Origin: an uncultured Candidatus Saccharibacteria bacterium
Lineage (GTDB): Bacteria > Patescibacteriota > Saccharimonadia > Saccharimonadales > EFPC-124
NCBI GenBank assembly: GCA_964436805.1
Contig: CAYTEG010000004.1
Coordinates: forward strand, 1 to 37,547
Reading direction: 5' to 3'
DNA: 37,547 nt
The position numbers and the translations under genes are program-made. The notes under the pieces were generated by a model. The model was not told the origin of the DNA. It saw only the letters and a program-made list of their open reading frames with translations, and ran no database searches. Positions 4,507-34,608 of this stretch are shown in pieces. The stretch's first letter is position 1. Each line of letters begins with the position of its first letter.

Positions 4507-5976
4507 ATGCGCGTTTTCCGGCTTACCAAACAGTCGTTTAAATTGCCGCTGCTGGCGGCTTTGGCGCTTGTGGTTGCTGCTGCCGGCGTGCTGTACCGCC
4601 AACCGGCGCCGGCGCACGGCGCAACTAATGGCAAGATCGTTTTTTCGCGCACCGACGCTGATTCGCGCATTTTCGTGATGGACGCCGACGGCACCAACAT
4701 GCACGAAATCATCACGGCCGACCCTGGCAACTACCCAATGTGGTCGCCGGACGGCACAAAAATCGCCTACAGCACCCTTGTAAGCGGCGTGTACCAAATT
4801 GCCGTCATGAACGCCGACGGTAGCGGCCAAACCCAGCTTACCCATGCAACCGAATTTATGATCGGCCCCAGTTGGTCGCCCGACGGCAGCAAACTGGCCT
4901 TTTTATGTTACGACGGCGTCGACACCCAACTGTGCACTATAAACGTCGACGGCTCCAACCAAACGCAAATCACCCACAGCTCCACCATTTTTGGTTTGCC
5001 CGATTGGTCGGTGGCAAACAAAATTGCCTACACTTGTTACGACGGCGTCCATACTCAAATTTGCACGATCAACCCCGACGGCAGCGGCGATACGCAAATT
5101 ACCCACGATGTCATCGACCACGAGTGGGCGTCGTGGTCGCACGACGGCACCCGGCTGGTGTACCAGGAGGCCGGCACGTTTTACGTGTACCGCCTGGCGA
5201 TTATTAACGCCGACGGCACCGGCTTGCAACACCTCACCACAACCACCACCAATGTGCAGACGCCGCGCTGGTCGCCCGATAATTCCAAAATTGTGTATTC
5301 TAACTTTAATGGCAGCACCGACGCCACGCAGCGCATTTACACCATTGGTGTTGATGGCACGGGCGAGACGGCGATTTCTGACGACGACGGTATATATTCG
5401 GATCTTCCGTCGTGGCAGCCGTTGGTAACCAGCGACCAAGATGGTGACGGTTCGCTTTCGGCCGCCGAACAGACTGCGCCAAACGGCGGCGACGCCAACA
5501 ACGACGGCGTTGGCGATTTTGCGCAGCCAATGGTAACGAGCATGGTAAATGGCGTCACGAGCAAATATGTTGCGCTGCAATCGGATTGCGTGGCGAACGC
5601 CGGTGTTTCGGCCGCCGCAGCGACTCACACGGACGCTGGTTTTACCTACCCTGCCGGGCTGCTGAGCTTTACGTTAGACTGTTCGGTTGGCGCAACCGCC
5701 ACGGTGACGCAGTATTTTTACGGGCTCAGCGCTAACAGTACGTTTGTGCTCCGCAAGTACAACGCCAGCACCAACCAGTATGCCACCGTGCCCGGCGCGG
5801 TAATTTCGGCCGTGACGATCGGCGGCCAGGCGGCCACAAAAGTGGTATACCAAATTGCCGATGGCGGCCCGCTCGACCAAGACGCTACCGCTAACGGCAC
5901 AATTGTCGACCCTGTCGGCGTGGCACTGCCTGCCGCCGGCGTGCCAAACACTGGCCTTGGCGGGTTACTGCGCTAG
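4507..5976 (+). CDS. Secreted TolB-like beta-propeller (PD40 repeats) + choice-of-anchor U-like domain, C-terminal VPNTG
   Basis: Signal peptide; repeated P.WSPDG.KIAY and NADGSGQTQLT units; DGGPLDQDATANGTIVDPVG motif; ends VPNTGLGGLLR. Confidence 0.85.
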   Translation: MRVFRLTKQSFKLPLLAALALVVAAAGVLYRQPAPAHGATNGKIVFSRTDADSRIFVMDADGTNMHEIITADPGNYPMWSPDGTKIAYSTLVSGVYQIAVMNADGSGQTQLTHATEFMIGPSWSPDGSKLAFLCYDGVDTQLCTINVDGSNQTQITHSSTIFGLPDWSVANKIAYTCYDGVHTQICTINPDGSGDTQITHDVIDHEWASWSHDGTRLVYQEAGTFYVYRLAIINADGTGLQHLTTTTTNVQTPRWSPDNSKIVYSNFNGSTDATQRIYTIGVDGTGETAISDDDGIYSDLPSWQPLVTSDQDGDGSLSAAEQTAPNGGDANNDGVGDFAQPMVTSMVNGVTSKYVALQSDCVANAGVSAAAATHTDAGFTYPAGLLSFTLDCSVGATATVTQYFYGLSANSTFVLRKYNASTNQYATVPGAVISAVTIGGQAATKVVYQIADGGPLDQDATANGTIVDPVGVALPAAGVPNTGLGGLLR

Positions 5977-7608: not shown

Positions 7609-8253
7609 ATGCGTAGGAGGATTTTGTGGCTTGGCGCAGGCGCCTGCCTTGTTGTTGCCGCTGGCGTACTGTTTTTTGTGATGCGCCCTGCTCCTAAAGC
7701 TGCCGCTCCTGCTGCTGCGCCCCAGCCGCAAAATGTCGTCACTTATTCGACCGACACGCCGTCGGAAGAGCCGGCGACGGTACATACGTATCAATCGAAG
7801 GCCAAGGGTAACGAGCCAAAATATATTACGCTGCCTAGCCTTAACGCCGGCGGTTATGTCGAGGCGGTCGGGCTCGACCAACACGGCGCCGTGGCCGTGC
7901 CGAGCAATATTAACTTGGCCGGCTGGTACGTGGGCACGCTGGCGCCGGGGCTTGCCGGCCTAAGCGTCATCGACGGCCATGTAAACGGCCAAAAGTTGCC
8001 CGGCGTTTTTGCCGATTTAGCAAAGTTAGCGGCCGGCGACACTTTTACGGTAGAGCTGGCAAACGGCACCGTGCACCATTTTACGGTTAAAAGCGTCAGC
8101 CAGGTGCCAGCCGACGCAGCTGGCACCGCACTTTTTGCCCGCGACAACACTATTGCCAGCCAGCTCAACCTTATTACCTGCGGCGGCGAGTTTAACCGCA
8201 GCAAAGGCGTGTACCAAGACCGCATAATTGTGGTAGCGGCGTTGGTTGATTAA
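7609..8253 (+). CDS. Class F sortase
   Basis: N-terminal TM; AGWY..PG..G.SVIDGH, LNLITCGG and downstream R (His-Cys-Arg triad). Confidence 0.9.
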   Translation: MRRRILWLGAGACLVVAAGVLFFVMRPAPKAAAPAAAPQPQNVVTYSTDTPSEEPATVHTYQSKAKGNEPKYITLPSLNAGGYVEAVGLDQHGAVAVPSNINLAGWYVGTLAPGLAGLSVIDGHVNGQKLPGVFADLAKLAAGDTFTVELANGTVHHFTVKSVSQVPADAAGTALFARDNTIASQLNLITCGGEFNRSKGVYQDRIIVVAALVD

Positions 8254-15296: not shown

Positions 15297-17045
15297 TTAG
15301 CGTAGTTTGCCTATAATAACGGCCGCAATCCACACCAGCGCAATGCCGCCAGGGATTATGAGTAGCCACGCGAGGTCTGGGTTATTTGATTGAGGCTGGT
15401 CGGTTGTGTTTTGGTTTTGAGTGTTATTGTGCGTGGTCGTTGGCGAGGTTTCGGCTGGCGTTGATGCTGCAGTTGTGGCTGGTGTTTCTTCGGTTACGGC
15501 CGCATTGGTTGTTGACGATGCTGTGGCTGCGCTCCCCAATGACGACCCGCTGCTGCTTACCGCGGCCGCCACTGTGCTGGTAATAAACCCAAGCCACACG
15601 CCGTTGCCTTTGGCGTTGTTTGCCCGCACTTGTATGTAATAAGTGGTGGATGGGCTCAGGTTGGTGATTGTGTATGTAAGCGTCGCAGCCGACAAGCCAG
15701 ATACATCGTTATTAAACGTGGTACCGTCGGTGCCCCACTGCAAATCGTAGCTGGTGACGGCGCTGCCGCCGGTGTCGGCTGGTGGATCCCACATGACTTT
15801 TAGCGTGGTGTCGCCGCGCGTGACGCGCACGTTGTCGGGCCGCCCTGGTACGCTTTGCAAGGTTGGGTAGCTAGTAGCGTTGGTGCGCCAAATGGTCGAA
15901 AAATCCCAGTGGTTGAGCGGCGCGTTGGTGTGGTTGTTAAAAAAGTAGTTGGGCGCGGCGTTCGACACATTTACGCCCGTGCAGTCGACGGTGATTTGCA
16001 AATCCCCCACGCAGTCGGCTTGGCCGCTGCGCGAAACGTCCCAGTAGCTGCTAATAATGTCACCTGGTAGTCCAGCGTTGGTAACGCCCACAAAGCCGCC
16101 CGCAGTAAAGCCGCTCACGCTGCCAACCGAAAAGCTGTCGGTAATAACGCCGTCGTCGAGCCCGCCGGCAAAACCGCCCACGTTGCTGCCGGTGGCGGTT
16201 ACACTACCGCTGGCGTAGGCGTGCACGTAGGCGCTGTCGTTTACGCGGCCCGACATGCCGCCAACGTAGTTGTGGCCAGTCACGTTGGCGGTGGTAAAAC
16301 TGTCTTCGATGTTGGCGCCGTTGCCGTCGGTGCCGGCAAACCCGCCGGTGTACTGCGCCTGCGTTGGGTCGTCGATGTTGGCGGTCACACCACCACCCAG
16401 CACATAACTGCGGCTGACGTCGGCCATGTTAACTTCGCCGGCAAACCCGCCAATTTCGCTGGTTGCGCCCGAGCTATTGGTGCCGTTAACGGTGGTGTTA
16501 GAGGTGCCGCTGTCGGACGCGCTGCAGCGGAACAAACTGCCAGCCAGGCCACCAATAAGCGCCAAGCCCATGGCGTTGCTGTTAGTAATGGTGACGTGTT
16601 CGATACTGCAAAACCCGGCCGTGCCGCCAGTGAGCACACCCACGTAACTTTCGCCCTGCACCGCCGAATCGGTGATGGTGAGGTTGCTCACCGTTGCGCC
16701 GTTTACAAGGCGGAACATGCCTACATGGTGGCCCGAAAGTTCAATAGCGTTTATACCACTTATGGTGTTAAAGCCGCCGTCGAGCGTGCCGGTAAAACCG
16801 GGGCCGGTGTTGCCAATGGGGGTAAACATCGACGCCGAGCAGTCGATATTATTCATTATTTTGTAGCTAGCGGCGAGGTCGCTGCCAATTTCTTGCAGCT
16901 GGGCGCAGGTAGTGATTTTGAACGGGTTAATTGGCGTGCCCGCGCCCGCACCGCTAAACGCCAACGCAGCGGGAACGTTAAAAAACGACGCAAAAACGCT
17001 CAGCAAAAATAACGCAGCAAACACCAGGCTCTCTCGTCGCCTCAT
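15297..17045 (-). CDS. Surface protein: GLUG-motif beta-helix + fibronectin type III domain + S/T linker + C-terminal TM
   Basis: Signal peptide from ATG 17045; FSGAGAGT..PF.I start; repeated VGG(L/F)AG; WDPPADTGGSAVTSY..LSPSTTYYIQVRA.N..G.G; C-terminal hydrophobic helix ending KLR. Confidence 0.85.
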   Translation of the reverse strand: MRRRESLVFAALFLLSVFASFFNVPAALAFSGAGAGTPINPFKITTCAQLQEIGSDLAASYKIMNNIDCSASMFTPIGNTGPGFTGTLDGGFNTISGINAIELSGHHVGMFRLVNGATVSNLTITDSAVQGESYVGVLTGGTAGFCSIEHVTITNSNAMGLALIGGLAGSLFRCSASDSGTSNTTVNGTNSSGATSEIGGFAGEVNMADVSRSYVLGGGVTANIDDPTQAQYTGGFAGTDGNGANIEDSFTTANVTGHNYVGGMSGRVNDSAYVHAYASGSVTATGSNVGGFAGGLDDGVITDSFSVGSVSGFTAGGFVGVTNAGLPGDIISSYWDVSRSGQADCVGDLQITVDCTGVNVSNAAPNYFFNNHTNAPLNHWDFSTIWRTNATSYPTLQSVPGRPDNVRVTRGDTTLKVMWDPPADTGGSAVTSYDLQWGTDGTTFNNDVSGLSAATLTYTITNLSPSTTYYIQVRANNAKGNGVWLGFITSTVAAAVSSSGSSLGSAATASSTTNAAVTEETPATTAASTPAETSPTTTHNNTQNQNTTDQPQSNNPDLAWLLIIPGGIALVWIAAVIIGKLR

Positions 17046-17120
17046 TCCCCGCAAACCCCTTATGATTAATAGTGTATAGTAAAATGCGGCCTGCGCCAAC
17101 AGGTTTGCTATGATTGTAGT

Positions 17121-17666
17121 ATGTCTATAAAAATCACCTATTTTGTGCACGGCACCACGACCGATAACGAAAAAGATATGTCCTCTGGCTGGAACGACGC
17201 GCCGCTTTCTGAGCTTGGCGAGCAGCAATCGAAAGAGCTAACCGCCAAAACGGCGCAACATACCTTTGACGTTGTGTTTACGTCGGATTTATCGCGCGCG
17301 GTTAATTCTGCCAAAATTACCTGGGGCGACAAGTACAACATTGTGCAAGATGCGCGCCTGCGCGAGTGTAACTACGGCGACTACAACGGCAAGCCCAGTG
17401 TAGTTGTTGAGCCGCTGCAAGAAAAATCAATCACCACGCCCATGCCCGGCGGCGAAAGTTACGAGCAGGTTAAACAAAGAATCGCCGCGTTTTTAGCCGA
17501 CATAAAAAAAGATTACGACGGCAAACACATTGCAATTGTCGCCCACAAAGCGCCGCAACTGGCGCTCGATGTTTTGCTGCGCGGCATGACGTGGGAGCAG
17601 GCTTTCGCCAACGACTGGCGCGTCACAAAACAGTGGCAGCCCGGCTGGGAATATATGTTAAATTAA
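17121..17666 (+). CDS. Histidine phosphatase (phosphoglycerate mutase) family protein
   Basis: VHG (RHG variant), SDLSRA, LRECNYG, GGESY, IVAH motifs. Confidence 0.85.
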   Translation: MSIKITYFVHGTTTDNEKDMSSGWNDAPLSELGEQQSKELTAKTAQHTFDVVFTSDLSRAVNSAKITWGDKYNIVQDARLRECNYGDYNGKPSVVVEPLQEKSITTPMPGGESYEQVKQRIAAFLADIKKDYDGKHIAIVAHKAPQLALDVLLRGMTWEQAFANDWRVTKQWQPGWEYMLN

Positions 17667-26847: not shown

Positions 26848-27711
26848 ATGGACGGTATGGTATATGTCCCTGGAGGCAGCTTTCTTCAGGGAACACCCCG
26901 ATGGGTGCTAGATTGGCTCAACAAGCAGGACGGCCAGGCCTTCCCGCCTGGGTGGTTTGCCGATGAGACGCCGCAGTTACTCGTCGACATCGCTTCTTAT
27001 TACATCGACCAGCATTTGGTGACGAACTTCGGGTTTGCGCGCTTTTGCGCCGACACCGGCTACGTCACCGACGCCGAGCGATGCGGTTACGGTATGGTCT
27101 ATACCGATTACTGGGAGGAGCGACAAGGCGCAAACTGGCAGGCGCCCGCCGGCCCCGGCAGCACAAACGCCGGGCGCGAAGACCACCCCGTTGTGCATAT
27201 TTCGTGGCCGGACGCGAATGCATATGCGCTGTGGGCGGGCAAACGGTTGCCGACCGAGTCAGAATGGGAGCTCGCCGCTTGCGGCCGAAACTTCCGTTTG
27301 TGGCCATGGGGTAACCAATGGGATAGCCGGCTGGCAAACACGGCCGAACTACATGCTGGCGAGCTGGGCACGCTCGAAGCGTGGCGCGCATGGTGGCAAC
27401 GCGTGTACGCTACCCACGGCCCAATGCCGCAGACAACGCCGGTGGGCGCGATAAGCGCCGGCCGCAGCGATTACGGCGTTTGCGACATGGCCGGCAACGC
27501 GTACGAGTGGACGGCAACATTGTCGCACTTGTACGATCCAACCGTCGAATGCGACCCGATGCTCCGCCTCGTCATGGGCAAGTACCGGGTTATACGCGGC
27601 GGTTCGTGGATGAATTTTCGGTACCAAGTGCGGTGTTCCGAACGCATCCACGGCGACCCTGCCGGCTGGTCGAACTTTGCAACCGGGTTCCGATGCGCGA
27701 AAGACGCGTAG
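26848..27711 (+). CDS. FGE-sulfatase (SUMF1/EgtB/PvdO) domain protein
   Basis: MVYVPGGSF, DETP, VTN..FARF, HPVVHISW.DA.AYA.WAGKRLPTESEWE, DMAGNAYEW, RGGSW, GFRC; AGGAGG SD. Confidence 0.9.
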   Translation: MDGMVYVPGGSFLQGTPRWVLDWLNKQDGQAFPPGWFADETPQLLVDIASYYIDQHLVTNFGFARFCADTGYVTDAERCGYGMVYTDYWEERQGANWQAPAGPGSTNAGREDHPVVHISWPDANAYALWAGKRLPTESEWELAACGRNFRLWPWGNQWDSRLANTAELHAGELGTLEAWRAWWQRVYATHGPMPQTTPVGAISAGRSDYGVCDMAGNAYEWTATLSHLYDPTVECDPMLRLVMGKYRVIRGGSWMNFRYQVRCSERIHGDPAGWSNFATGFRCAKDA

Positions 27712-28909: not shown

Positions 28910-29110
28910 TTAAGGCCCGTAGTCGCGTTGGCCGTAATTTATAGTGCCGTCTTTTTTTTCGTTGCGGCTCAGCACGCCAACTAATGCCGACAACCCAAAC
29001 AAGGCCGACACGCCCAGCCCGAGCGTGCCTAAAAACTGCTTGCGCGTCATTGGCGTTGCCAGCAGTTTGTCGACTTTAGCCTTAATCGTCTTTGGGTTTT
29101 TCTCCACCAT
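28910..29110 (-). CDS. Small membrane protein with Tat-like MTRKQFL motif and C-terminal YG repeats
   Basis: 66 aa; MTRKQFLGTLGLG + hydrophobic helix; ends NYGQRDYGP. Confidence 0.65.
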   Translation of the reverse strand: MVEKNPKTIKAKVDKLLATPMTRKQFLGTLGLGVSALFGLSALVGVLSRNEKKDGTINYGQRDYGP

Positions 29111-29151: not shown

Positions 29152-29763
29152 CTAGTTGGCCACCGCTGTGTAGGTTACCTGGGTGCTGTACGAACCGCTG
29201 GCGACGTTGGTGTTGGCGCAAACGCCGTACCAAATCGTTGTCGCAACAGCCGGGTTGGCCGCCGAAGTGGTACTTGCGATGATGTCGGCACTGGCGTTAC
29301 TGGCTTTTATAGCAGCAAAAGACGTGGCATTGGGGCTGATGTTGCTTTGTGCTGTCGTTGGCCCGCTGCCAAAACTGCCGAGCCCGTCGACCCGGTATCC
29401 CCATGCATTGGGAGTGAGCGCCGCCGGGCTTGCCAACGTGCCGCCCCCGGCGTTAATTGAGCTGCCGCCGTTTACCAATGCCGTATTTGTGGTTGCGTCA
29501 GAAAGCATTAATGTGTAGCCGTTGGCGTCGTCGGTTTGTACCGACGCTTGGTCGCTTTGTACCGTGCAGTTGCCGCTGGCTGTGGGCGTAACGTTAAGGG
29601 CGACGTTGCCGTTACTAATAAGGGTGACGCTGCATACGGCGCCGTAGTTGCACGACCCGTATGTGCTGCTGCCGTATGTTCCGCTGGTAAGGGCAAATGC
29701 CGGCATACACACGGCGAGCAACATGCTAACCGCCGCGCTTAACCCGACTATGCTGCGTTTCAT
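29152..29763 (-). CDS. Secreted pilin/WxL-like subunit, paralog 3 (YG-rich, Cys-containing N-terminus)
   Basis: Signal peptide ending AFA; shares GYTL, WGYRVDG.G.FG.GPT and G.Y...VTYTA.AN with paralogs 1-2; four Cys in the mature part. Confidence 0.75.
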   Translation of the reverse strand: MKRSIVGLSAAVSMLLAVCMPAFALTSGTYGSSTYGSCNYGAVCSVTLISNGNVALNVTPTASGNCTVQSDQASVQTDDANGYTLMLSDATTNTALVNGGSSINAGGGTLASPAALTPNAWGYRVDGLGSFGSGPTTAQSNISPNATSFAAIKASNASADIIASTTSAANPAVATTIWYGVCANTNVASGSYSTQVTYTAVAN

Positions 29764-30668
29764 GGCGATTTTTTGTAGGATGTCTTTTTGGCTGCACGTT
29801 TGCGGGCCATAAACCGCATGGCAATCACAATCGTCGCGCCGGCCAGCATAATGATCAGCCCAATTTTAACCGGCATCGACATTATAAACACCCATTTTGT
29901 TGGCAATTGCTGGGTTTGGCCAAGCATTTGTATGTTGCCAGTGATTTGGAAGATGCCGATAAACGGCGTGTCGTTCCAGGCAATCGGCACTTTGCGGATC
30001 GTTTGCGGCAGGATTTCTTTTGTTGTCTCGAGGCTATACTTTGACTGGCCAAAAATATCGCGCACGTTTACTTGTATCGTTGCCGGGTAATGCACGCCGC
30101 CGGTGTTAACCAGCCTAATGTTGGCCAAAAGCGGCGGTTCTTGCAAAAAGTCGCTATCCCAATTAAGCAGCGCGCCTTTTTCGCTCACCTGCCCCGCAAC
30201 CTTAATGTAAAATATTTCGCCGACCCGTTTGTTGAGCGTAATGCTGCCAGGTTGCTCGGGGAAGGCTGTTTGGGCAAAAACGACCGCGTAGTAGCCGCCC
30301 GGCGCAACGTCTTTTGGTACGGTAATCGTGTATTTTATGGTGGCTGCCTGCCCGGCTTTTAGTTCGCCGCCGGCGCCCGAAAAGCTAAACCATTTGTCGG
30401 CCGGCGTAACGCTTGGCAGCGGTGTGAAATCGGGAGTGTATTCTTCGCCCGAGACATGGTACGGGGCGCTGCTCACCTGAAACGGGTAATCGGTTTGCCC
30501 TTGGTTTAAAATTTGGAACGTGCCTTCTTGCGATGCTCCGGGTGTGATCTCGGGGCTCGCCGAAGTTGGCGTTATAGTTATTTCTTGTGATGCTGCGTGG
30601 GCAGCGCCTGGCAAGGCCAGTGCCGCCACAATCATGGCCGGTATAAGTAAGTGACGCAGTATTTTCAT
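29760..30668 (-). CDS. DUF916/WxL-interacting-like Ig-fold protein with C-terminal TM anchor (chaperone-like)
   Basis: Signal peptide; ITP, N.G, W, YTITVPKDVAPGGYYAVVFA, NTGGVH, ILPQTIR; C-terminal TM followed by a basic tail. Confidence 0.75.
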   Translation of the reverse strand: MKILRHLLIPAMIVAALALPGAAHAASQEITITPTSASPEITPGASQEGTFQILNQGQTDYPFQVSSAPYHVSGEEYTPDFTPLPSVTPADKWFSFSGAGGELKAGQAATIKYTITVPKDVAPGGYYAVVFAQTAFPEQPGSITLNKRVGEIFYIKVAGQVSEKGALLNWDSDFLQEPPLLANIRLVNTGGVHYPATIQVNVRDIFGQSKYSLETTKEILPQTIRKVPIAWNDTPFIGIFQITGNIQMLGQTQQLPTKWVFIMSMPVKIGLIIMLAGATIVIAMRFMARKRAAKKTSYKKSP

Positions 30669-30669
30669 A

Positions 30670-31266
30670 TTAATTTGCGGTTAAAGTATACGTGACGCTG
30701 TTGGTGTAGGTGCCAGACGGTTGCGACGTGTTTGCGGCAACGCCAAACCACACGGTCGTGGTGTCGCTGGTTGCCGTGCCAGCTGTTGTTTTAATGGTGT
30801 TGGGCGAAGCCGTGGCCGGCACCGCCGCAAACTTAATGCTGCCGCTGACCGCTGCGCTACTTTGGCCAGATGTTGGCCCAGCGCCAAACCCGCCTAAGCT
30901 ATCAACCCGGTACCCCCAGGTGTTGTTGACCATTGCGATTGGCACCGCCTGAGTACCCGCCGATGCCGGGATGCTGTTGCCGCCAGATACCAGCGCCGAG
31001 CTGCCGGTTGTTTCGGCCAGCTGCAGGGTGTAGCCCGATGAGTCGTTGGTGCTGACCGTAACGGTGTCGCTGGCGATTGTTTGCGCGCCCGACGCCGTTG
31101 GTACGACGTTAGCGTTTACGGTGGTACTGGTGGTAAATAATCCAATAACAGGGCTCACGACCGAGCTTATCGTTGTCGAGGCAGTCGCTGCAAACACAAC
31201 GGCCGATGTGCCAAAAAATACAGCAATTACAGCAATTAGATAAACGGCAAGTTTTAGCTCTTTCAA
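30670..31266 (-). CDS. Secreted pilin/WxL-like subunit, paralog 2
   Basis: Likely TTG start at 31266 behind GGGAG (ORF extends to 31305); signal peptide ending VFA; C-terminus PSGTYTNSVTYTLTAN. Confidence 0.75.
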   Translation of the reverse strand: MKELKLAVYLIAVIAVFFGTSAVVFAATASTTISSVVSPVIGLFTTSTTVNANVVPTASGAQTIASDTVTVSTNDSSGYTLQLAETTGSSALVSGGNSIPASAGTQAVPIAMVNNTWGYRVDSLGGFGAGPTSGQSSAAVSGSIKFAAVPATASPNTIKTTAGTATSDTTTVWFGVAANTSQPSGTYTNSVTYTLTAN

Positions 31267-31571
31267 CTGGTTCTCCCTCGGTAGCAACTTAAGCTTGATG
31301 ACCACAGCTTAACACGCTTACGCTACTAAGAGCAATGCTTTTTGTGTAATTAATTAGCAATGCCGGTATACGTGACGCTGTTTGTGTAGGTGCCCGTTGG
31401 GAGCGTGGTGTTGGCTACCACGCTAAACCAAACAGCGGTGGTGTCGTTTGTGGCGGTCGACGACGTGACTTTAATAGTGTTGGGGCTGGCACTTGCCGGC
31501 ACTGCCGCAAAAGTGGCGGCACTTACGGCTGCGCTACTTTGGCCAGATGTTGGCCCAGCGCCAAACCCGCC
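30851..31571. repeat. 44-bp exact direct repeat shared by paralogs 1 and 2 (30851-30894 and 31528-31571)
   Basis: GCTGCGCTACTTTGGCCAGATGTTGGCCCAGCGCCAAACCCGCC in both copies. Confidence 0.9.
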
Positions 31572-31976
31572 GATTCCATCGACCCGGTATCCCCAACTAT
31601 TTGCGGTGAGCGCGCTTGGTGAAGCCTGGGTGCCGGGTGCCGCAGGGATAGTGTCGGCGCCAGAAACAAGCGCCGATTCGGCCCCGGTGCGCGAAATTTG
31701 CAAAGTGTACCCGTTTTGGCCACTGGTGCTTACGGTTATGGTGTCACTGGCGATTGTTTGGGTGCCGGCCGCAGACGGGGTAATATTAACGTTTACCGCG
31801 CCGCTCGAGGTAAATAATCCCATGACAGAGGTAACCGTCGAGCTGATGGTCGTTGCTGCCGTTGCCGCCGAAACAGCCGTGGCCGTCAGCATGACGCCGC
31901 TGCAGGCCACGCACAACGCTAAAACAATCTCGGTAATAAGGGCTAAATGGGGCGCGTGTTTTTTTGTGTATGCCAT
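31350..31976 (-). CDS. Secreted pilin/WxL-like subunit, paralog 1
   Basis: Signal peptide ending VSA; collinear with paralog 2; C-terminus PTGTYTNSVTYTGIAN. Confidence 0.75.
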   Translation of the reverse strand: MAYTKKHAPHLALITEIVLALCVACSGVMLTATAVSAATAATTISSTVTSVMGLFTSSGAVNVNITPSAAGTQTIASDTITVSTSGQNGYTLQISRTGAESALVSGADTIPAAPGTQASPSALTANSWGYRVDGIGGFGAGPTSGQSSAAVSAATFAAVPASASPNTIKVTSSTATNDTTAVWFSVVANTTLPTGTYTNSVTYTGIAN

Positions 31977-32131
31977 GTTGGTTTTGTATGCAAACGCTTA
32001 CGTTTAAGTATAGCTAATCGTTTATTGAATGAAAAGTATTTTTAGGCGGCATTGCCTGCACTATGGCGCTCATGGTAACATACAATTAATTACGATCAAA
32101 AAGGGGAAGCCTCGGCGGCGAGCACAATATT

Positions 32132-32545
32132 ATGACACGTTTACCTACTCCCGGCGGCGATGGCAACAACTGGGGAACGCTTTTAAATGACTTTTTGCAG
32201 CAGGCGCTCGCGAGCGACGGCACTTTAGTTACCGGCGCGACCAACACCTACACTGGCGCCGCAAACACTAACCTGGCCAGTGGCAGCAAGCCGGGTTTGG
32301 TGCAGCTGGCCGGCGATTTAAGCAACACGGCCGCCTCGCCCACCGTTGTTGGGTTACGTGGCCGCGTGGTTGATTCGGCAACGCCCAGTAACGGCGATGT
32401 TTTAACCTGGAACACTAGTGCCAGCAAGTGGCAGGCCGTCCAGCCGGCCGCTGGCGGCAGCGGGCTCACCGGCGATATCGACGGCGGCAACGCATCGTCA
32501 ACCTACGGCGGCGTCACCATCATCGACTGCGGAGCTTCGGCTTAA
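32132..32545 (+). CDS. Small fibre-associated protein with RLPTPGGD..WG.LLNDFL N-terminal motif
   Basis: N-terminal motif recalled from Saccharibacteria fibre-like proteins; GLVQLAGDL, P.NGDVLTWN....W and IDGG are tail-fibre-like motifs. Confidence 0.7.
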   Translation: MTRLPTPGGDGNNWGTLLNDFLQQALASDGTLVTGATNTYTGAANTNLASGSKPGLVQLAGDLSNTAASPTVVGLRGRVVDSATPSNGDVLTWNTSASKWQAVQPAAGGSGLTGDIDGGNASSTYGGVTIIDCGASA

Positions 32546-33580
32546 ATGGCCACGCAAATTCAGTTTAGGCGCGATACAGCCGCCAACTGGATATCGGCAA
32601 ACCCGGTGTTGGCCGTTGGCGAGGTCGGGCTCGAAACCGACACAAATTCGTATAAAATCGGCGATGGCGCGACCGCCTGGACAAGCCTTGGCTACCGGCA
32701 GCTCGCGCCCGAAATCACTACATTATTAATGGACGGCCAAAGCAGCGACGCTTCGGCCCCGACGGCTGGTGATTTAACAGTGTACGCCAAGGCAATTGGC
32801 GGCCGCATGATGCTTAAACAAATTGGCGCGAGTGGGCTTTCGACTGCCCTGCAGCCGTTTTTGGCGCGCAACAAAGTTGGTTATTGGGATCCGCCTGGCA
32901 ACGCCACCACGGTGCCCGGCGTGTTTGGTTACACCGCGCTTACCACAACCGGTACGGTTACGGCGCGTACGGTGGCCACAACCAACACCTTTACTTTAAT
33001 GCGTCGTTTGGGGTTGGTATCTTCGGCGACCGCCGGTAACTTAGCGGTTGGCCGCGTTGCCGTGGCGCAGGTAACACTTGGCGACGGCGCCGGCAATGGC
33101 GGTTTTTACAAAATTTGCCGGTTTGGCTGCAGCGACGCGCTTACTGTGGCGGGCGCGCGCCAGTTTGTTGGCGTGAGCTCGTCGACATCGGCGCCGACCA
33201 ACGTTGAGCCATCGACGCTCACCAACAGTATTGGCGTTGGCCATGGCGCGGCCGACACCAACCTCAAAATGTTTTATGGCGGGAGCGCCGCCCAAACGCC
33301 AATTAACCTTGGCGCCAACTTTCCGGCCAACACGCTCAGCACCGACGTATACGAGCTTGCTTTGTTTTCGCCGCCCAACGACAACAACCACGTGTACTAC
33401 GAGGTTACGCGCATAAATACCGGCCATGTGGCGGCCGGCACGCTTACCGGCACGGCGGGCACGGCTTTGCCGGCTTCTTCGACGTTGTTGGTATACCAGA
33501 TGGCGTGGCGCTCAAACAACGCAACGGCCAAGGCGGTGGGGCTCGATATTATGAGCGACTACATCGAAACGGACAACTAG
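32546..33580 (+). CDS. Phage tail-fibre-like protein, Mtd_N/hyaluronidase-N-type N-terminal domain (copy 1)
   Basis: QIQFRRDTAANWISANPVLAVGEVGLETDTNSYKIGDGATAWTSL; no signal peptide. Confidence 0.8.
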   Translation: MATQIQFRRDTAANWISANPVLAVGEVGLETDTNSYKIGDGATAWTSLGYRQLAPEITTLLMDGQSSDASAPTAGDLTVYAKAIGGRMMLKQIGASGLSTALQPFLARNKVGYWDPPGNATTVPGVFGYTALTTTGTVTARTVATTNTFTLMRRLGLVSSATAGNLAVGRVAVAQVTLGDGAGNGGFYKICRFGCSDALTVAGARQFVGVSSSTSAPTNVEPSTLTNSIGVGHGAADTNLKMFYGGSAAQTPINLGANFPANTLSTDVYELALFSPPNDNNHVYYEVTRINTGHVAAGTLTGTAGTALPASSTLLVYQMAWRSNNATAKAVGLDIMSDYIETDN

Positions 33581-33582
33581 CC

Positions 33583-34608
33583 GTGGCTGTGCAAATTAAA
33601 TGGCGGCGCGATACAGCGGCAAACTGGACGGCGAATAATCCGGTGTTGGCGGCTGGCGAACCGGGGTTCGAAACCGACACCGGCGCGTATAAAATCGGCA
33701 ATGGCTCGGCTGGCTGGAATTCGCTCACCTACGGCGCGTTTTCGGCCAACCCAATTGCCGCTCTGTTTTCTGGCCGCGCAACCGACCCGTCGGCGCCGGC
33801 CGCCGGCAATTTAACCGTATATAGCAAGGCGATCGCCGGCCGTCAGATGCTTAAACAAGTTGGCCCGAGCGGGCTTTCGACGGCAATCCAGCCGTTTTTG
33901 GGCCGTAACAAGGTTGGCTACTGGTTGCCACAGGGTAATTCTACGACGGTGCCGGCTGTTTTTGGCTACACGGCGCCAACTGGCATTGGCACCGCGACCG
34001 CAGTAAACGTCACGACCACCAATGTATTTACGCGTATGCGGCGTTTAAGTTACGTCACAACCACCGCGGCCACTGCATACGCCGGCCAGCGCGTCGCGGC
34101 CAACCAAATTTGCATGTTTGGCGGGTTTTACAAAATTGTGCGTTTTGGCATAAGCGATCCGGTGGTTGCCTCGCCGTCACTTATGTTTGTGGGAGTCAGC
34201 GCCGCCAACGCCGCTCCATCTGGCGGTGGCGACCCGTCGACGCTGGTAAACAGTATTGGCGTCGGGCATGGTGGCTCCGACACCAACCTCAAACTATATT
34301 ACGGCGGCAGCACCGCTCAAACGCCTATCGATTTAGGCGCCAACTTTCCTATTAACACCACAAACACCGACGTTTACGAACTGGCGTTGTTTGCGCCAGC
34401 TGGCAACTCGAACGATATTTACTACGAAGTCACGCGCATTAACACCGGCGACGTCGCCACCGGCCTGATCGCTGGCGACGGCAACGGCATAGTGGTGCCC
34501 GCCCCAATGACCTTGTTAAACTATTGCTACCACTGGCGCTGCAACCTGGCGACCGCCCTTGTGGTGAGCATAGATATAATGAGCGACTACATCGAAACCG
34601 ACAACTAA
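33583..34608 (+). CDS. Phage tail-fibre-like protein, Mtd_N-type N-terminal domain (copy 2)
   Basis: GTG start at 33583; QIKWRRDTAANWTANNPVLAAGEPGFETDTGAYKIGNG; collinear with copy 1, same C-terminus DIMSDYIETDN. Confidence 0.8.
   Translation: MAVQIKWRRDTAANWTANNPVLAAGEPGFETDTGAYKIGNGSAGWNSLTYGAFSANPIAALFSGRATDPSAPAAGNLTVYSKAIAGRQMLKQVGPSGLSTAIQPFLGRNKVGYWLPQGNSTTVPAVFGYTAPTGIGTATAVNVTTTNVFTRMRRLSYVTTTAATAYAGQRVAANQICMFGGFYKIVRFGISDPVVASPSLMFVGVSAANAAPSGGGDPSTLVNSIGVGHGGSDTNLKLYYGGSTAQTPIDLGANFPINTTNTDVYELALFAPAGNSNDIYYEVTRINTGDVATGLIAGDGNGIVVPAPMTLLNYCYHWRCNLATALVVSIDIMSDYIETDN

Follow-up and report, generated by a model that had tools for sequence, protein, structure and literature searches.

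Bacteria of the candidate phyla radiation (CPR) live attached to other microbes; little is understood of how their hosts are reached and held. To our knowledge, no fibre specific to CPR bacteria had a structure before Pam pili. Four co-oriented genes at positions 29152-31976 of contig CAYTEG010000004.1, from an uncultured Candidatus Saccharibacteria bacterium, raise the question of what kind of surface structure they encode (the window, below, means the whole stretch analysed, i.e., 37,547 nucleotides). From genes and predictions, it is probable that the locus encodes a minimal Pam-type chaperone/donor-strand pilus of a monoderm CPR bacterium, with neither usher nor sortase. The evidence is computational, i.e., homology, the fold of the chaperone, a conserved gene order and a predicted strand-in-groove interface. 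This kind of system is already described (Pam pili, 2026); what is new here is its single-domain form. The features are the following (ORF: open reading frame):

31350-31976, minus strand: subunit S1, 208 amino acids (ORF list)
30670-31305, minus strand: subunit S2, 211 amino acids as the longest ORF
29760-30668, minus strand: chaperone-like gene, 302 amino acids (ORF list)
29152-29763, minus strand: subunit S3, 203 amino acids (ORF list)
31977-32131, no strand: divergent intergenic region between S1 and a 137-amino-acid ORF (orf137), which is conserved in the opposite orientation; probable site of the operon promoter

The operon and its conserved gene order

The sequence-only reading had placed four co-oriented genes in this region, and all the ORFs are present there on the minus strand, in the transcriptional order S1, S2, chaperone, S3. 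Each of the four proteins has a hydrophobic, signal-like N-terminal segment. From the end of the S2 ORF to the start of the chaperone ORF there are 2 bases, and the chaperone stop and the S3 start overlap by 4 bases; given this spacing, S1-S2-chaperone-S3 is one operon. The source genome has 958,882 bases in 102 contigs and is 92.8% complete.

The four-gene pattern is not due to chance, since the subunit has 1119 homologs and the chaperone 73 (E ≤ 1e-3 in both cases) and since the gene order is conserved. Species-representative genomes were scanned with the chaperone profile, which gave 57 loci in Saccharibacteria and other Patescibacteria, i.e., 34 with a close chaperone and 23 with a distant one. 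A co-oriented subunit gene adjoins the chaperone in all 34 close loci; the co-occurrence of the two kinds of gene, which the earlier reading called for, is thus complete in this set. The numbers of subunit genes upstream and downstream of the chaperone are 1+1 in 19 loci, 2+1 in 5 (the arrangement of the window itself), 0+1 in 6, 1+0 in 3 and 2+0 in 1. The upstream-type subunits are cysteine-free after the signal peptide in 32 cases out of 34, and the consensus of their N-terminal strand is x-T-A-x-T-T-I-S-S-x-I-S-x-V-I-S-L-F. In 30 of these 34 loci a subunit of the S3 type, i.e., with the strand replaced by a Gly/Ser/Tyr-rich segment containing two Cys, lies 3' of the chaperone; a crude count gives exactly four Cys in 27 of these 30 proteins. 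Around the distant chaperones a neighbouring match to the subunit profile occurs in 4 of the 23 loci and is weak (E 3e-6 to 1e-4).

The subunit family is present in 64 of 301 sampled Saccharimonadia genomes (E ≤ 1e-10). The named homologs of both the subunit and the chaperone belong to Candidatus Saccharimonadales and Saccharibacteria. It should be added that eight loci with distant chaperone homologs are on contigs publicly labelled Gammaproteobacteria or Pseudomonadales, which come from co-assembly bins; these may be mis-binned CPR contigs or may reflect a wider distribution.

Subunits, chaperone and predicted assembly

The three paralogs, each with a signal peptide, had been recognised from the sequence with their shared motifs, and both points are borne out. 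Identity to S1 is 62% for S2 and 43% for S3, and all three contain GYTL, WGYRVD, FGxGPT and the C-terminal G-[TS]-Y-x3-VTYT. In each of them, a signal peptide and a short N-terminal segment precede a single domain, and the mature size is about 170 residues. The alternating N-terminal strands were located exactly, at residues 38-54 of S1 (whose mature chain starts near residue 38) and 40-56 of S2. The true start of S2 may be about 13 codons downstream of that of the longest ORF, judging from the homologs, most of which have 197-213 amino acids. S1 matches the subunit-family profile (50 members) with E 1.5e-83, and its N-terminal strand is of the conserved, cysteine-free upstream type. S3 has the Gly/Ser/Tyr-rich segment with two Cys at the place where S1 and S2 have the donor strand.

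Pfam gives no family match for S1-S3, and a sequence search against solved structures with the subunit profile and the chaperone returned no match below E 1.3. When searched against 1.84 billion cluster representatives, the 50-member profile finds 1293 proteins at E ≤ 1e-3, most of them of about 200 amino acids. Among the best 150 cluster representatives, 24 are long relatives (343-1773 amino acids) with the subunit domain at the C-terminal end. Their N-terminal payloads are varied (TolB-like propellers, PARCEL repeats and others), and a strand-like segment is kept ahead of the domain in all 10 of the 24 that were examined. Payload, strand-like segment and C-terminal domain follow each other in these ten, which is the Pam layout. 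In the window, a beta-propeller protein at 4507-5976 is like the payload of some long relatives; it was set aside, being without the subunit domain.

The protein encoded between S2 and S3 had been described as chaperone-like, with a C-terminal transmembrane segment and a basic tail. Its second hydrophobic segment lies at about 258-289 and is followed by the basic tail; in the AlphaFold2 model (alignment of 61 homologs, mean predicted local distance difference test (pLDDT) 89.2) two beta-sandwich domains precede a helix at 265-298. The description is thus upheld. Its sequence falls in no Pfam or NCBIfam family, and DUF916, DUF3324 and PapD are absent among the best 25 of 48 families for the 61 homologs. 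Searched with Foldseek against the PDB, the model has as best match the WxLIP of Enterococcus faecium (9i1y and 9i25, E 1.8e-11), followed by CfaA, CsuC, YadV, FimC, SafB and EcpB.

The source genome contains a second, divergent chaperone-subunit pair, split over contig ends (contigs 68 and 81). On contig 68 (4485-4875) there is a partial subunit of 130 amino acids, open at the contig end, which matches the family profile with E 4e-9 and whose N-terminus is Gly/Phe-rich and without cysteines. On contig 81 (179-877) there is a chaperone homolog (E 6e-12).

The sequence-only reading had further proposed that the subunits assemble by donor-strand exchange. The complex of three copies of S2 (residues 40-211) was predicted from the subunit-family alignment, with three runs and three controls. 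The homotrimer scores 0.55, 0.56 and 0.57 vs. 0.00 for the best control, and thereby passes a mark which, among the proteins used for calibration, was reached by 20 of the 30 that had been solved as pairs and 1 of the 23 that had been solved as single chains. The runs have at least 95% of their contacts in common, and the partner pLDDT is 87. Residues 40-53 of one copy are placed against residues 54-70 and 193-208 of the next; the donated strand also touches core positions 76, 105, 107, 112, 130, 189 and 191. The pairing of residue 44 with 206, and of residue 50 with 195-200, makes the donated strand antiparallel to the last strand of the neighbour. Since residue 48 is near 64-67 and residue 50 near 69, it is parallel to the first strand. 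In the predicted trimer the N-terminal strand sits between these two strands, in the groove of the neighbour, and the modelled interface is what donor-strand exchange requires, in agreement with the proposal.

S3 has no equivalent of residues 40-53 of S2. Being a groove domain without a donor strand, it would therefore be an acceptor of strands only. By analogy with PamT, it is probably a distal cap or tip subunit. The pilin-like role that had been given to all three paralogs is thus kept for S1 and S2 and dropped for S3, which does not polymerise like the others.

The mechanism that we infer would be the following. S1 and S2, each consisting of an N-terminal donor strand and one incomplete beta-sandwich domain, would be exported by Sec. 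The anchored chaperone would fill the groove of each new subunit, the best candidate for its strand, parallel to the last strand of the subunit, being the conserved N-x-RVGEIFYIKV stretch at residues 146-157; the N-terminal strand of the next subunit would then displace the chaperone strand, and a linear fibre would grow outward from the membrane. S3, as acceptor only, would most likely be the first and distal subunit (cap or tip). The fibre would be tethered by the anchored chaperone, on which the last subunit would probably remain. Contact with the host cell would be the likely use of the fibre, as proposed for Pam pili (PMC13278184).

Comparison with Pam, chaperone-usher and WxL pili

The Pam preprint of 2026 (PMC13278184; statements on it refer to the part of its text available to us) describes by cryo-electron microscopy (cryo-EM) the PamA and PamB filaments of Ca. 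Mycosynbacter amalyticus, which are assembled by donor-strand exchange with no usher. The chaperones PamC and PamD are FimC/PapD-like with a transmembrane helix at their C-terminus, and PamT is a single-domain, strand-less tip pilin. Eight canonical Pam operons were fetched for comparison. The chaperone profile matches a gene of 330-360 amino acids in all eight (E 5e-17 to 2e-32, mostly full-length), and by these matches the chaperone of the window clearly belongs to the Pam chaperone family. The 302-amino-acid protein is thus most likely a membrane-anchored pilus chaperone with a WxLIP-like fold, of the PamC/PamD family, membership being judged via the chaperone genes of the canonical operons and not via the PamC and PamD sequences themselves.

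The subunit profile has no match at E ≤ 10 among the ORFs of the same eight operons. With hhalign, the profile of the 50-member subunit family and that of 21 canonical Pam C-terminal regions align over 139 columns, i.e., the whole domain (86.4% probability, E 4.7e-6). S2 matches the NCBIfam model NF058581 (CPR_Pam_pilin_C) at positions 15-147 of 148, with 21.8-23.2 bits for a cut-off of 55; 15 of 29 family representatives also match the model near-fully, all below the cut-off (17.6-40.2 bits). On these profile comparisons, the subunit domain is distantly homologous to the C-terminal domain of Pam pilins, and it constitutes a subfamily of its own, in which the N-terminal domain is missing.

The operon and the Pam system are alike in (i) bacterial class; (ii) the sequence family of the chaperone, with its C-terminal transmembrane helix; (iii) the lack of an usher; (iv) donor-strand assembly, here predicted only; (v) a strand-less small subunit, as PamT; (vi) a tail-fibre-like gene as conserved neighbour, such a gene being reported next to Pam operons (PMC13278184). 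They differ in the subunits: Pam pilins (38.7 and 55.3 kDa) consist of a nine-strand N-terminal sandwich, a strand serving as linker and a domain at the C-terminus, whereas S1-S3 have a single domain. The donor strand is the interdomain linker in Pam and the mature N-terminus in S1 and S2. The major subunits of the operon are cysteine-free, unlike those of Pam. Among its four genes there is a single chaperone, and none that resembles PamE or PamR was recognised, no search with a PamR model having been made.

The small proteins could also be minor components or adaptors of canonical Pam filaments encoded at other loci, entering these filaments or starting them. NF058581 is above cut-off in 134 of the 301 sampled genomes, and at least eight genomes carry a canonical Pam operon and the present family at separate loci; the published model moreover permits mixed filaments (PMC13278184, available text). 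On the other hand, the family is accompanied by its own chaperone in every close locus, together with a cap-like subunit. The only NF058581 match of the source genome is the sub-threshold one at this locus, i.e., no pilin is above the cut-off, though an operon may have been missed given the completeness and the number of contigs. At least six further sampled genomes likewise have the family with only sub-threshold NF058581 matches. An adaptor role is accordingly given little probability, and a self-contained Pam-type pilus is preferred.

Classical chaperone-usher pili (class 5, i.e., CFA/I with CfaA and CfaB; archaic Csu) differ from the present system, in which there is neither outer membrane nor usher and in which the chaperone is membrane-anchored. 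The absence of an usher from the window, stated in the sequence-only reading, holds for all 44 window ORFs scanned (Pfam, PF00577), and the genome gives no match at E ≤ 1, the E. coli control being positive. PapD_N (PF00345) gives no sequence signal in the genome. The sequence likeness of the subunits to classical ones is negligible, the SCPU domain being found in 2 of 50 family members with E 0.029. Assembly had also been called sortase-independent; this stands, since no credible LPxTG sorting signal was found in any window ORF. A sortase-domain gene lies at 7609-8253 (plus strand), 21 kb from the operon, and a 643-amino-acid fibronectin-type-III surface protein at 15297-17228 (minus strand), 13 kb off; neither is a conserved neighbour in the loci examined.

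In the Elr preprint of October 2026 (bioRxiv 10.64898/2026.10.17.759780, likewise for its available text), the pilus encoded by the elr operon of E. faecalis is made of ElrD, a single-domain WxL protein whose copies are joined by donor-strand exchange. ElrD is primed by ElrE, a transmembrane-anchored DUF916/DUF3324 chaperone, and the system is reported there only in Bacillota. The likeness to the present operon lies in small single-domain pilins, an N-terminal donor strand of about 15 residues, the lack of an usher, a monoderm envelope and a two-domain chaperone with a C-terminal transmembrane helix, for which WxLIP is the best structural match. The differences are that (i) the phylum is another one; (ii) the subunits have no WxL (PF13731) signal, i.e., no match in S1-S3 at E ≤ 1, in any of the 50 family members at E ≤ 10, or in the genome; (iii) the chaperone matches neither PF06030 (WxLIP_PGBD, formerly DUF916) nor PF11797 (WxLIP_HBD); (iv) there is no LPxTG base subunit among the window ORFs.

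This comparison also bears on another explanation, i.e., a non-filamentous surface complex, in which monomers or short oligomers would sit on a membrane-anchored WxLIP-like protein and bind the wall or the host, as WxL/Csc clusters were read before 2026. The closest structural match, WxLIP, was solved 1:1 with a WxL protein (9i25), a DUF916/DUF3324 binder links bacterial and host surfaces (PMC10599100, in its available part), and for this subfamily no filament has been observed. The trimer prediction is, however, a head-to-tail strand-in-groove chain and not a capped monomer, and in the upstream-type subunits no part is more conserved than the N-terminal strand. Moreover, the Pam proteins and the WxL protein ElrD itself are donor-strand polymers by cryo-EM (PMC13278184; bioRxiv 10.64898/2026.10.17.759780; available texts). 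A non-filamentous complex is thus unlikely, though less so than the adaptor role considered above.

Several points weigh against the preferred reading of the locus as a Pam-type pilus. (i) This subfamily is known from genes and predictions alone, and no filament has been seen at this locus. (ii) The S2 trimer runs, with three copies and a custom alignment, differ from the setting in which the tool was calibrated, and a passing score may reflect the memory that the model has of solved chaperone-usher complexes. (iii) The AlphaFold2 monomer of S2 is poor (pLDDT 56) and gives no basis for a structural comparison of the subunit fold. (iv) No subunit reaches the 55-bit cut-off of NF058581, and S1 and S3 do not match the model at E ≤ 1. 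(v) No PamR-like anchor is apparent among the four genes, again without a PamR-directed search. (vi) The geometry of the Pam fibre is not transferable, because S1-S3 are devoid of the nine-strand N-terminal domain of both solved Pam pilins.

The distribution of the WxL-type families was then considered beyond this operon. In a language-model atlas, 7 of the 30 nearest clusters of S2 are under the WxL set (best value 0.92, with 172 of 256 features in common), and Pfam WxL is found on 60% of the members of the best one. A Saccharimonadota cluster in which 20% of the members carry PF06030 lies near the chaperone. Among the 301 Saccharimonadia genomes, PF06030 is over the Pfam cut-off in 71 and at E ≤ 1e-3 in 124. 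By coordinates, PF06030 matches fall inside the chaperone genes of 5 of the 8 canonical Pam operons, and many more are at most 1 kb away from Pam pilin matches above the cut-off; in 6 genomes a sub-threshold match is beside a subunit gene of the present family. PF11797 is over the cut-off in none of the 301 genomes, which weighs against the link with WxL systems. In the source genome the only PF06030 match (E 0.29, not significant) is in the second chaperone, on contig 81, and not in the gene studied here; a PF11797 match (E 0.074) is elsewhere than this operon.

One Saccharimonadia genome (G091, contig 2, 13498-16686) has an operon with a 263-amino-acid pilin at the Pfam WxL cut-off (34.3 bits, G-W-S-L motif), directly upstream of a 312-amino-acid transmembrane-anchored chaperone with a near-threshold PF06030 match (25.5 bits). 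Profile comparison gives homology of this chaperone with that of the window (75.6% probability, E 2.4e-5). A WxL-type operon thus exists in Saccharimonadia, i.e., outside Bacillota, the only phylum named in the available text of the Elr preprint. Homology of the subunit family with WxL pilins was not retained: hhalign against 15 CPR WxL-type pilins (relatives of the G091 one) gives 2% probability; the top alignment keeps to the register that one would expect (N-terminal strand to first WxL motif) but is not significant. The Pam C-terminal domains give 1.7% against the same 15 pilins, and the single G091 pilin 0.9% against the subunit family.

We lean slightly towards the view that Pam and WxL/Elr pili are two branches of one ancient single-membrane pilus system, defined by an anchored chaperone and donor-strand exchange, of which this operon would be the CPR form nearest to the WxL layout. 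The chaperone half of this common origin is well supported by the profile and structural matches; the pilin half is unproven. What is new is that, judged by the profile matches, Pam chaperones and those of Gram-positive WxL pili belong to one sequence family. The available Pam text contains neither WxL nor DUF916, and that of Elr contains neither CPR, Patescibacteria nor Pam; among the papers listed by a literature search on WxL with CPR terms, none links the two systems.

Neighbouring genes and meaning of the single-domain form

Divergent from the operon, on the plus strand, are orf137 (32132-32545) and two tandem paralogs with Mtd_N, the N-terminus of the phage major tropism determinant (32546-33580, E 1e-15; 33505-34608, E 4e-16). 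By eye, none of the three proteins has a signal peptide. Of the 57 related loci, 23 have a homolog of orf137 and 14 have one of the Mtd_N proteins, mostly directly upstream and on the opposite strand. These proteins may be, to give one example of a role, the host-binding partner of the fibre. The recurrence of these genes next to the operon would also fit a phage-derived receptor-binding module comprising operon and Mtd_N genes, rather than a cellular pilus. This is very improbable: there are no other phage genes among the 44 window ORFs scanned, the operon proteins all have signal peptides whereas the neighbours have none (by eye only), and the chaperone and subunits are homologous to parts of a pilus purified from cells (PMC13278184, available text). 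A cellular Pam-type pilus is thus preferred here too.

In the intergenic region between S1 and orf137, the minus strand has one sigma-70-like site (32035-32007). It is no evidence alone, the scan having given 2 promoter sites vs. 2.5 expected by chance. The counts of promoters and terminators are not above those of shuffled sequence.

Just 3' of S3, a 66-amino-acid ORF (28910-29110, minus strand) has one hydrophobic segment after T-R-K-Q-F-L, which looks like a twin-arginine signal. Six of the 57 loci have a homolog of it; in 5 it lies downstream of the S3-type gene, and in the other one it is upstream, on the opposite strand. Further on, at 26848-27711 (plus strand), a protein of the FGE-sulfatase family (C-type-lectin-like fold) is encoded in a patch of 63% G+C vs. 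50-55% nearby. Diversity-generating retroelements of CPR bacteria commonly target proteins with this fold; none of the window ORFs scanned was seen to encode a reverse transcriptase.

The meaning of the operon is, first, that the Pam machinery exists in a stripped-down form, i.e., one-domain subunits, one chaperone and one cap, which current curated models do not name. In some genomes, the source genome included, it may be the only pilus of the Pam type. Being small and tractable, it lends itself to the study of how a chaperone drives donor-strand exchange where there is no usher. Finally, since Pam and WxL chaperones are linked in sequence, a shared origin is suggested for systems that were described as CPR-only and Bacillota-only, and such an origin bears on the evolution of surface fibres in single-membrane bacteria.

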